A stretch of 64,000 bases of DNA from Candidatus Micrarchaeota archaeon (lineage in GTDB: Archaea; Micrarchaeota; Micrarchaeia; Norongarragalinales; SBBD01). Location of the stretch: contig JACRGC010000001.1 of the NCBI GenBank assembly GCA_016212475.1, forward strand, positions 9,862 through 73,861, read 5' to 3'. The translations under genes were made by a program, and so were the position numbers. Numbering within the stretch: the first letter of the stretch is position 1; each line of letters begins with the position of its first letter. The notes beneath the pieces were generated by a model that ran no database searches, had not been told where the DNA came from, and saw nothing but the letters and a program-made list of their open reading frames with translations. This document shows, in pieces, positions 42,104 through 43,237 of the stretch.

Positions 42104-43237
42104 ATGTCAAGGACAATTAGGAAAAGGCATGCTTACCGTGCAAAAAACGTCCTCCTAACAGACGTTCCAAGCATTTCAAAAACCGTAAACAAGGCAGTTG
42201 CAACCCTATCAAGCAAAGTTTCAATCAAATCCCTAGTTCCAAAGAAAAACCAAAAGAAAATAGAGGATATAAAATCCCTAGAGGAAGTCAAATCAACTGC
42301 AGATATTGCTGTTTCAACCGCCCTAATCGATCAAGTGATTGGCCAGGAGCGGGGAATTAATGTGATCCGCAAGGCCTCTTCCCAAAAGAGAAATGTTTTG
42401 CTTGTTGGAACCCCTGGAACCGGAAAGAGCATGCTTGCGCAGGCAATGGCCGAACTTATGCCAATTGAAGAGCTTCAAGACATTTTGGTTTATGCGAACA
42501 GGGAAGATGACAATGTCCCAAAAATCAAGACAATGAAAGCCGGCGAAGGAAGAAAGATGATTTCAAGCGAGAGGATGCAAACCCGCATGACCGCTGGAAA
42601 TTCCAACATGATGATGATGGGCTTCATGATGCTTTCGATGCTAATTGGGCTTTACATACTTCCGAAATATTTTGATTCAGTAATTGTTGCGGCAATGCTG
42701 ATTGGTGTTTTTCTTATGAGCGCGGCGCTGATGTTTGCAATGCAGCTAGGAAGAGGCAGGATGTTTGATGCAAGCGATACTGCAAAGCTGATAGTTGATA
42801 ATACCGGAAAAAAGAACGCTCCATTTGTTGATGCGACCGGCAGCAGGGCGGGCGCTCTTCTTGGCGATGTCAAGCACGACCCTTTCCAGTCATTCGAAGG
42901 AAAAACAATAGTTGAACTTAACGGTGAAAAATTCGCCCTTGAAAAGCTTTGGGATGATTATTCCCAAAAATACCCAATTGAAAAAGGAAAAGATGGGTAT
43001 GAGGCAATTGTACTTCCAAAGAAGGACAAATCAAAAATAACAGCTTCAAAGAAAGGCAAAAAAGTTGCTGCAAAGCTTCTAATCATAAACCGCCGGCCCT
43101 ACAAGGGAAAAATGATTGAAATAAAATCGGGCAAGAATAAACTTCTAACAACCCCCGAGCATGGCTACATTTCAAACCCATCTACAAAGAAAGCCAAAAA
43201 CCTAAGGAAAGGCGCAAAAATTTACATTGCAAACTGA
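42104..43237 (+). CDS. lonB: archaeal Lon protease LonB, N-terminal fragment (AAA+ Walker A plus TM insertion) fused to an intein-like N-terminal fragment; truncated
   Basis: Residues 1-262: [47 protein letters not shown]...[14 protein letters not shown], TM helices, then [25 protein letters not shown]. This is colinear with LonB up to the point where SGGLGTP..Walker B is expected. Instead it reads [15 protein letters not shown] (intein block A-like, Ser1) ... [12 protein letters not shown] (block B TxxH), then a stop. No Walker B or protease domain follows. Confidence 0.7.
   Translation: [377 protein letters not shown]
42890..43234 (+). other. putative N-terminal split-intein fragment (blocks A and B only, ~115 aa)
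   Basis: Block A S-F-E-G-K-T-I-V and block B L-T-T-P-E-H. There are no C-terminal blocks F/G (HN+Ser/Thr/Cys) before the stop. Confidence 0.5.

Follow-up and report, generated by a model that had tools for sequence, protein, structure and literature searches.

A LonB N-terminal half ending in a split-intein N-fragment points to a protease gene divided between two loci in a Micrarchaeota archaeon

We analyzed a 64,000-nt stretch of DNA from Candidatus Micrarchaeota archaeon (GenBank assembly GCA_016212475.1, contig JACRGC010000001.1, positions 9,862 to 73,861 of the forward strand; this whole stretch is hereafter called the window), in which the open reading frame (ORF) at 42104..43237 encodes the first part of the membrane-bound AAA+ protease LonB followed by the first part of an intein. 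We consider it very likely that a naturally split lonB gene has this ORF as its N-terminal half, with the partner half very probably in the same genome, and that the product is trans-spliced. An earlier note on this DNA, made from the letters alone, had proposed the architecture of a trans-splicing split-intein N-half; the proposal was supported by the anatomy of the gene, by the intein profile and fold of its tail, by the existence of a partner C-half and by conservation. We also found an evolutionary series among the relatives of the gene, in which the intein ranges from contiguous to dispersed.

The window ORF was identical to NCBI entry MBI5224287.1, which is named "ATP-binding protein [Candidatus Micrarchaeota archaeon]", lies on a 94,616-bp contig and comes from a metagenome-assembled genome (MAG) of Candidatus Micrarchaeota. 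The features of the gene are given below in coordinates of the window, together with the evidence for each.

42104..43237, forward strand: complete gene, LonB N-extein plus split-intein N-fragment (377 residues, ATG start, TGA stop).
42104..42889, forward strand: N-extein, residues 1-262, ending in ...GDVKHDPFQ (4zpx alignment, TIGR00764 match).
42407..42430, forward strand: Walker A/P-loop GTPGTGKS, residues 102-109 (sequence; AAA-family Pfam matches centered there).
42608..42742, forward strand: membrane hairpin, hydrophobic helices at residues 169-187 and 193-213 (hydropathy windows above 1.6; aligned with the transmembrane insertion of TonLonB).
42890..43234, forward strand: intein N-fragment (IntN), residues 263-377, 115 residues (family alignment, PDB profile, AlphaFold2 model, colinearity with a contiguous mini-intein).
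42890..42892, forward strand: codon of Ser1 (Ser263), predicted N-terminal splice nucleophile in intein block A (position 1 is Ser, Cys or Thr among 111 homologous N-halves).
43148..43162, forward strand: intein block B TTPEH (TxxH), residues 349-353 (conservation in 37 aligned IntN sequences).
43235..43237, forward strand: TGA stop at the canonical intein split point (4 of 4 clade members end within one residue; break mapped on mini-intein L105).
43246-43683, ATG 8 nt past the TGA: downstream pilin-like gene (class III, archaeal pilin-type, signal peptide; weak match, E-value of 2.7e-4).

The N-extein consisted of a variable Lys/Arg-rich leader (residues 1-38) and the N-terminal part of the LonB AAA+ module. 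Residues 39-263 were aligned with Thermococcus onnurineus LonB (PDB 4zpx) with an E-value of 1.4e-50; the alignment ended at ...GDV(K/R)HDPFQS, and the extein/intein junction falls between Q262 and S263. The window ORF alone matched TIGR00764, the NCBIfam equivalog model of LonB, over profile positions 4-207 with an E-value of 9e-59 and a score of 199.6 bits, which is below the curated cut-off of 516.6 bits because only the first third of the model was covered. Both Walker A and the hairpin, which is the LonB membrane anchor inserted within the AAA+ module, were present. The C-terminal part of LonB, comprising Walker B, the lid and the Ser-Lys protease domain, was found neither in the ORF nor elsewhere in the 64-kb window (best tblastn E-value of 3.8). 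An independent Logan assembly of run SRR12113407 agreed gap-free with window positions 42064-47683 (99.96% identity), a span that takes in the stop codon and the gene after it, and the truncation is therefore real DNA and not an artefact of MAG assembly. Exact-sequence look-ups of the window ORF and of a 94-residue RtcB fragment gave no match. The earlier note had read the ORF as LonB through Walker A and the transmembrane insertion, followed by a tail of about 115 intein-like residues from Ser1, with no Walker B or protease domain downstream and a pilin as the next gene; the first two statements agreed with the alignments and the junction described above, the third held throughout the window, and the fourth was matched by the class III signal peptide of the next gene, although that match is weak.

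The identity of the tail was decided by the family profile and the structural model, as single-sequence searches were weak; the window IntN had no Pfam match, and phmmer against the PDB gave an E-value of 0.13. A homology search revealed more than 100 N-halves with the window architecture, proteins of 320-420 residues from Micrarchaeota, Iainarchaeota (Diapherotrites) and metagenomic archaea. The first residue after ...HDP(F/L)Q was Ser in 84, Cys in 25 and Thr in 2 of 111 N-halves, and 50 of the 111 combined Ser1 with a complete lack of cysteine. The window IntN starts with SFEGKT, contains no cysteine and has a net charge of about +16. In an alignment of 37 IntN tails, the block B His was invariant and the Thr, Pro and Glu were at least 90% conserved. 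When a profile of these 37 sequences was compared with the PDB, all 20 matches were inteins; the best was the MJ0781 intein (2jmz) with an E-value of 4.8e-9, and the others included the PolB, VMA, CDC21, RecA, PI-PkoII, RadA and NrdJ-1 inteins. The AlphaFold2 model of the window tail showed a mean pLDDT of 88, and the top 29 Foldseek matches of this model in the PDB were all inteins, with a template modelling (TM) score of 0.72 for TvoVMA and of 0.64 for the cysteine-less Aes123 PolB1 split intein, the latter at about 14% sequence identity to the window IntN.

Upon comparison with L105, a contiguous mini-intein of 161 residues at the same LonB site, the window IntN together with the intein C-fragment (IntC) of a clade-mate was colinear, with 45% identity and an E-value of 6e-44. 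The sole gap was one of 4 residues at the break; therefore, no part of the splicing domain is missing. Contiguous relatives have a homing-endonuclease domain at the position where the window ORF has its TGA stop. LonB proteins of Micrarchaeia without an intein (P0089, P0084) run contiguously across the insertion site, so that the element is an in-frame insertion at a conserved host site. Profile and modeled fold thus identify residues 263-377 as a split-intein N-fragment, as the earlier note had suggested for this region.

A partner C-half was found in P0329 (MBI5224449.1), a protein of 462 residues encoded on a 74,241-bp contig, which we reached through its cluster membership with a related C-half (P0128). 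The protein begins with its own Met and 42 residues of an intein C-fragment ending in HN, behind an unrelated gene, and continues from Ser+1 with the rest of LonB, including Walker B (YIDE), GDSAS, a downstream Lys, and matches to PF20436 and PF05362. The contig did not overlap the window and carried no N-half. Several observations strongly suggest that P0329 very probably belongs to the genome of the window. In particular, the accession MBI5224449.1 is 162 numbers from that of the window ORF, P0329 is present on a Logan contig from run SRR12113407, the same run that gave the window's own locus, and the composition of the two contigs is close, with a GC content of 43.5% against 42.1% in the window and a tetranucleotide correlation of r = 0.964 (other archaeal loci, 0.08-0.89). 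The prediction that a C-half with an intein C-fragment is encoded elsewhere in the genome was thus borne out, with the assignment to the genome very probable. When residues 1-262 of the window ORF were joined in silico to residues 44-462 of P0329, the 681-residue product matched TIGR00764 as a single stretch over positions 4-607 of 608 with 856.9 bits, above the cut-off that the window ORF alone had missed, and the joined exteins regenerated the junction sequence of uninterrupted LonB exactly.

Other candidates were tried and rejected. The C-half of L072 (JBFYLO) belongs to another clade and was rejected as the partner clade. P0180 (MBI5226442, JACRGH, GC content of 53%) is 2,155 accession numbers away and has its own N-half nearby, and P0194 (MBI5228559), a full-length LonB, is 4,272 accession numbers away; neither was accepted as part of the window's genome.

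In the mechanism that we propose, the N-half product would be a membrane-anchored polypeptide with Walker A and the transmembrane hairpin, followed by the 115-residue IntN on the cytoplasmic side, and the C-half product would be a soluble protein consisting of the 43-residue IntC ending in ...LVHN, then Ser+1-GGLGTP, Walker B, the sensor/lid region and the Ser-Lys protease domain. IntN and IntC would associate to form a complete HINT fold. Ser1 would then undergo an N-O acyl shift, the N-extein would be transferred to Ser+1 of the C-half by transesterification, the terminal Asn of IntC would cyclize to release the intein fragments, and an O-N shift would establish a normal peptide bond, giving the 681-residue full-length LonB by the standard class 1 route. 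The splice residues are kept, namely Ser1, the Thr and His of block B, the terminal His-Asn and Ser+1. With Walker A on one side of the split and Walker B on the other, the AAA+ module is incomplete in either half, and neither is expected to be an active ATPase by itself; judged from the sequences, LonB activity should depend on the assembly of the two halves.

The split was not confined to the window. A search using the C-terminal portion of uninterrupted Micrarchaeia LonB revealed many C-halves of 445-483 residues, in which an initial Met and a stretch of some 25-70 residues, in most cases 30-45, with the pattern ...KG.VYN.TT.TGN..AN..LVHN led directly into SGGLGTP and the rest of LonB. Additionally, one genome per GTDB species was scanned with a degenerate DNA pattern for N/SGGLGTP...R...G..H....GVL, where the slash marks the junction, and at least 120 loci were found. 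Among the matches listed, the loci were distributed as follows.

Contiguous intein of 161-498 residues: at least 18 loci.
Split, same-strand N-half upstream and a homing-endonuclease-like (HEN) ORF separating it from the C-half: at least 43 loci.
Split, N-half nearby, HEN ORF undetected: at least 8 loci.
Split, with 3 kb or more of upstream sequence lacking an N-half: at least 8 loci.
Too near the locus edge to classify, two of them contiguous-looking: at least 43 loci.

Overall, the species genomes matched contained at least about 100 split loci against at least about 20 contiguous ones. The labeled hosts of the junction loci among the same matches were Woesearchaeota, Nanoarchaeia, Micrarchaeota, Iainarchaeota and Heimdallarchaeum, the last with two complete genomes; in Thermococcaceae, the intein is the contiguous one of Lon that was known before. 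Locus L001 contained, in this order, an N-half, a 388-residue ORF and a C-half, with the last two ORFs overlapping. The middle ORF was homologous over about 310 residues to the endonuclease domain of contiguous LonB inteins, those of Thermococcaceae included (E-values of 1e-42 to 3e-51), and we identify it as a free-standing endonuclease because of this homology; it had no significant Pfam match, and two LAGLIDADG-like motifs were seen by reading.

The closest relatives of the window N-half showed 64-74% identity and the gene order RtcB - LonB N-half - small downstream gene - eIF5A. Three assemblies besides the window's, from different studies, showed this synteny, and the small gene was pilin-like in the window and in L127. 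No C-half was found beside the N-halves of the closest relatives in the flanks of 2-10 kb read on each side. In the MAG of the clade-mate P0005, the N-half is located on JAZDKC010000019 and the C-half on JAZDKC010000054 (L019). The N-half P0042 and the C-half P0213 share one 99.6-kb contig, on which 28.5 kb separate them and the C-half comes upstream; read-through or frameshifting is therefore ruled out as a general explanation. We also considered dispersal by a recent segmental duplication that included the neighboring metallo-beta-lactamase-fold gene, which was unsupported, as the neighbors were only 25% identical.

Selection was assessed by comparing the proportions of nonsynonymous (pN) and synonymous (pS) differences, since dN/dS was incomputable for most pairs with their synonymous sites saturated. 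Between the window and three clade members, pS was 0.66-0.87 (saturated), and pN was 0.11-0.18 in the extein and 0.21-0.29 in IntN. The four clade ORFs were intact, without stops or frameshifts, and ended within one residue of each other.

Two unusual family members were observed in passing. A contiguous Micrarchaeota LonB (L101, JAJZKW010000003.1) carried two inteins, one inside Walker A (GEPG/C...HN/TGKT) and the other at the DPLQ/C...HN/S site. In P0027, encoded on a 1,780-bp contig from JGI, the intein fragment that follows the LonB N-half ends early and is followed by a C-terminal domain resembling the tRNA-intron endonuclease (PF01974); fusion, frameshift and chimera are all possible origins.

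Several points weigh against a trans-spliced LonB in the window's genome. We infer the expression of both halves and the splicing itself from the sequences, and likewise the C-half was placed in the same genome by accession proximity, sequencing run and composition. No intact lonB was seen for the window's genome, an exclusion that is incomplete, and an additional intact copy may be present. The Pfam model PF14890 (Intein_splicing) was not reached: IntN alone had no match, and IntN with IntC covered positions 19-155 of the 155 in the profile but scored 23.8-28.4 bits, the cut-off being 35.8. A precomputed match to this model was present in a few family members. By our reading of the sequences, block F of IntC lacks the Asp and His that are common in many class 1 inteins, a peculiarity that was also found in the contiguous Lon inteins of Thermococcales. 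Finally, both fragments are basic (about +16 for IntN and +3 for IntC), and the charge complementarity between fragments that has been described for several split inteins (PMC2677866) is absent.

The atypical block F and the Pfam score below the cut-off would also suit an arrangement in which the two halves associate through their intein fragments without splicing, so that LonB would be a non-covalent two-chain enzyme and the intein halves a dimerization module. We regard this arrangement as unlikely. The residues of the splice chemistry have been retained in more than 100 lineages, with Ser, Cys or Thr at position 1 in 111 of 111 N-halves and an invariant block B His; in the C-halves obtained through protein homology, a search that presupposed no junction pattern, the intein fragment still ends in HN or KN before Ser+1; contiguous relatives that share this block F, Thermococcales included, must splice to have any LonB; and the junction would restore the exact sequence of uninterrupted LonB. 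The earlier note had instead offered a decaying pseudogene as the alternative. Such a gene would be a former intein-bearing lonB that has lost its 3' part, and the gene does end within the intein, with no C-part in the 64-kb window. However, intact N-halves with this architecture occur in 111 proteins of many lineages, the four clade members have kept pN in IntN at 0.21-0.29 at saturated synonymous sites (pS of 0.70-0.87) while remaining intact with a common end point, and a matching C-half exists; conservation and the C-half led us to reject decay, which we hold to be very improbable.

We attach only the faintest probability to the idea that faulty assembly or binning, or else a frameshift from sequencing, hides a contiguous intein-containing lonB. 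The sequence is derived from a MAG and many relatives have contiguous inteins of 430-500 residues at this site, but the independent assembly from raw reads agrees through the stop codon into the pilin-like and eIF5A genes, the same gene order recurs in assemblies from other studies, and the C-half has a start of its own behind an unrelated gene. A naturally split and trans-spliced LonB is the reading that we adopt below.

The gene next to the LonB N-half on the other side is also interrupted, in this case by a short insert.

41933..40468, reverse strand: RtcB (tRNA-splicing ligase) gene, adjoining the LonB N-half.
41629-41660, reverse strand: 32-nt insert in RtcB between ...GGVGY and DINCGVRL... 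(protein alignment).

The insert was identical in the independent assembly, and its removal gave an open frame of 480 codons that was 83% identical to the uninterrupted RtcB of the close relative L002; it was absent from both L002 and L127. A metagenome scan revealed three more RtcB genes (L131, L132 and L133) whose inserts, 38, 32 and 27 nt long, occupy exactly the same site, in divergent hosts (RtcB identity of 56-67%, GC content of 29-58%). All four inserts fit a bulge-helix-bulge (BHB) motif, with canonical cut sites that coincide with the boundaries demanded by the protein alignment and restore the frame. The BHB helices showed compensatory double changes in 6 of 16 consensus pairs. The insert probably represents an archaeal pre-mRNA intron that has been conserved, and it lies in the gene of the very ligase that would be needed for the ligation of its own message. 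A precedent for an archaeal pre-mRNA intron is that of cbf5 (PMC2738675). In a clade-mate (L126 3047-5899, JAZDKC010000019.1), RtcB has 950 residues and carries a full intein with an insert of endonuclease size at ...GGVGYDIN/C, 9 nt downstream of the intron site of the window; one small region of RtcB is therefore occupied by an intein in this lineage and by a short RNA intron in that of the window. A different RtcB insert of about 33 nt was located directly after the MPDGH codons in L134 (12470-12510, Ga0209542_10000758, a 77.8-kb contig); it contains stops and has partial hairpin potential, and no frame-restoring BHB parse was found for it.

Other genes of the window were noted in passing. 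The ORF at 44256-45308 (forward strand) encodes a 350-residue repeat protein (...YG.KP.V.K.IL.FP.FA..DH.RV...) that matched the Pfam family mTERF (PF02536), which is mostly eukaryotic and organellar, with an E-value of 6.6e-6 and 25.7 bits (cut-off of 23.1); it is located between eIF5A and the metallo-beta-lactamase-fold gene, where L002 has no gene. Two giant ORFs were present on the reverse strand. The first, at 14494-21369, encodes a probable surface protein of 2,291 residues with CarboxypepD_reg and Ig-like repeats; the second, at 30599-34882, encodes 1,427 residues and had no Pfam match.

As far as the literature goes, natural split inteins are few and tied to genes of DNA and nucleotide metabolism, often in phages or cyanobacteria, and the range of hosts would be wider if, in many archaea with small genomes, an essential membrane AAA+ protease is reassembled by such an intein. 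In many MAGs, lonB is probably annotated as a pair of genes with no link between them, "ATP-binding protein" and "LonB", and this would affect completeness estimates and pseudogene calls. The series of contiguous, fractured, adjacent and dispersed forms offers a phylogenetic test bed for the model of split-intein origin of Dassa et al., and the family offers dozens of natural cysteine-free Ser1/Ser+1 split-intein pairs for protein engineering, a class that has been described as rare and sought after.

Our search of the openly searchable full-text literature found no account of a split intein for Lon or LonB, nor for any DPANN phylum named here, which is absence of evidence only and within that literature. 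The claim of the earlier note that a split Lon would be novel stands to that extent, but the sequences can already be found in public databases, where they bear generic names. We give about equal weight to the case for and the case against a broader reading, in which the LonB split intein would be an undescribed and very large natural family, mostly cysteine-free (Ser1/Ser+1), in DPANN and Heimdallarchaeia; it would be the first in a protease and membrane protein rather than in an enzyme of DNA or nucleotide metabolism, with every stage from contiguous to dispersed alive in one host gene. As part of the same reading, lineages like that of the window would depend on post-translational ligation at the membrane for the assembly of their sole LonB, and this step could be a checkpoint on protease levels.

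Natural split inteins with dispersed halves are known from cyanobacterial DnaE (PolIII alpha) and from PolB of Nanoarchaeum equitans, which is a DPANN archaeon too. As in these systems, the window and its partner would represent an essential enzyme that is encoded at two loci and split at the endonuclease insertion point. In contrast, the host at the window is an AAA+ protease of the membrane and not a DNA polymerase, Ser1 and Ser+1 take the place of Cys, the two fragments are both basic, and the LonB family keeps contiguous and fractured alleles side by side. The DnaE split-intein group is listed together with 10 contiguous LonB inteins of Euryarchaeota (PMC4760082), and the sizes of split-intein fragments are given as about 100-120 residues for IntN and about 35-45 residues for IntC (PMC12707363).

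The contiguous LonB inteins of Thermococcales and other Euryarchaeota (here L106 and L121) have the same insertion site as the window (…HDPFQ, intein, SGGLGTP…). Both ends of these inteins were homologous to the window family, and their endonuclease domain was homologous to the free-standing ORF of the fractured loci. These inteins are part of one polypeptide, with 460-500 intein residues, an embedded endonuclease, Cys1 and splicing in cis, whereas the window has only the first 115 residues, begins with Ser1 and then reaches a stop. Cysteine-less split inteins (Aes123 PolB1, LCGC14 PolB2 and others), a rare subclass, have been described in phage-type PolB or terminase genes (PMC12707363, PMC11923092). 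The window intein resembles them in its Ser1 and Ser+1, in the cysteine-free IntN and in having Aes123 PolB1 among its best fold matches; unlike them, its relatives form a large archaeal LonB family that is known here by sequence.

The closest comparison in gene layout is with the fractured genes of Dassa et al. (2009), who described 26 loci in eight DNA synthesis and repair enzymes, mainly from phages and with GIY-YIG or Vsr-like endonucleases (PMC2677866). L001 has the same order of an N-half with IntN, a free-standing endonuclease gene and IntC with the C-half, and at least 43 of the at least 120 GTDB loci have this layout as well. The LonB loci differ in that the host is a protease in cellular archaea and that the free-standing endonuclease is a homologue of the intein's own endonuclease domain. 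At the window, the N-half is followed by the pilin-like gene, with no C-half in 64 kb, and its arrangement corresponds to stage IV, the last stage of the Dassa model, in which the endonuclease gene has been lost and the two parts have become dislocated (PMC2677866).

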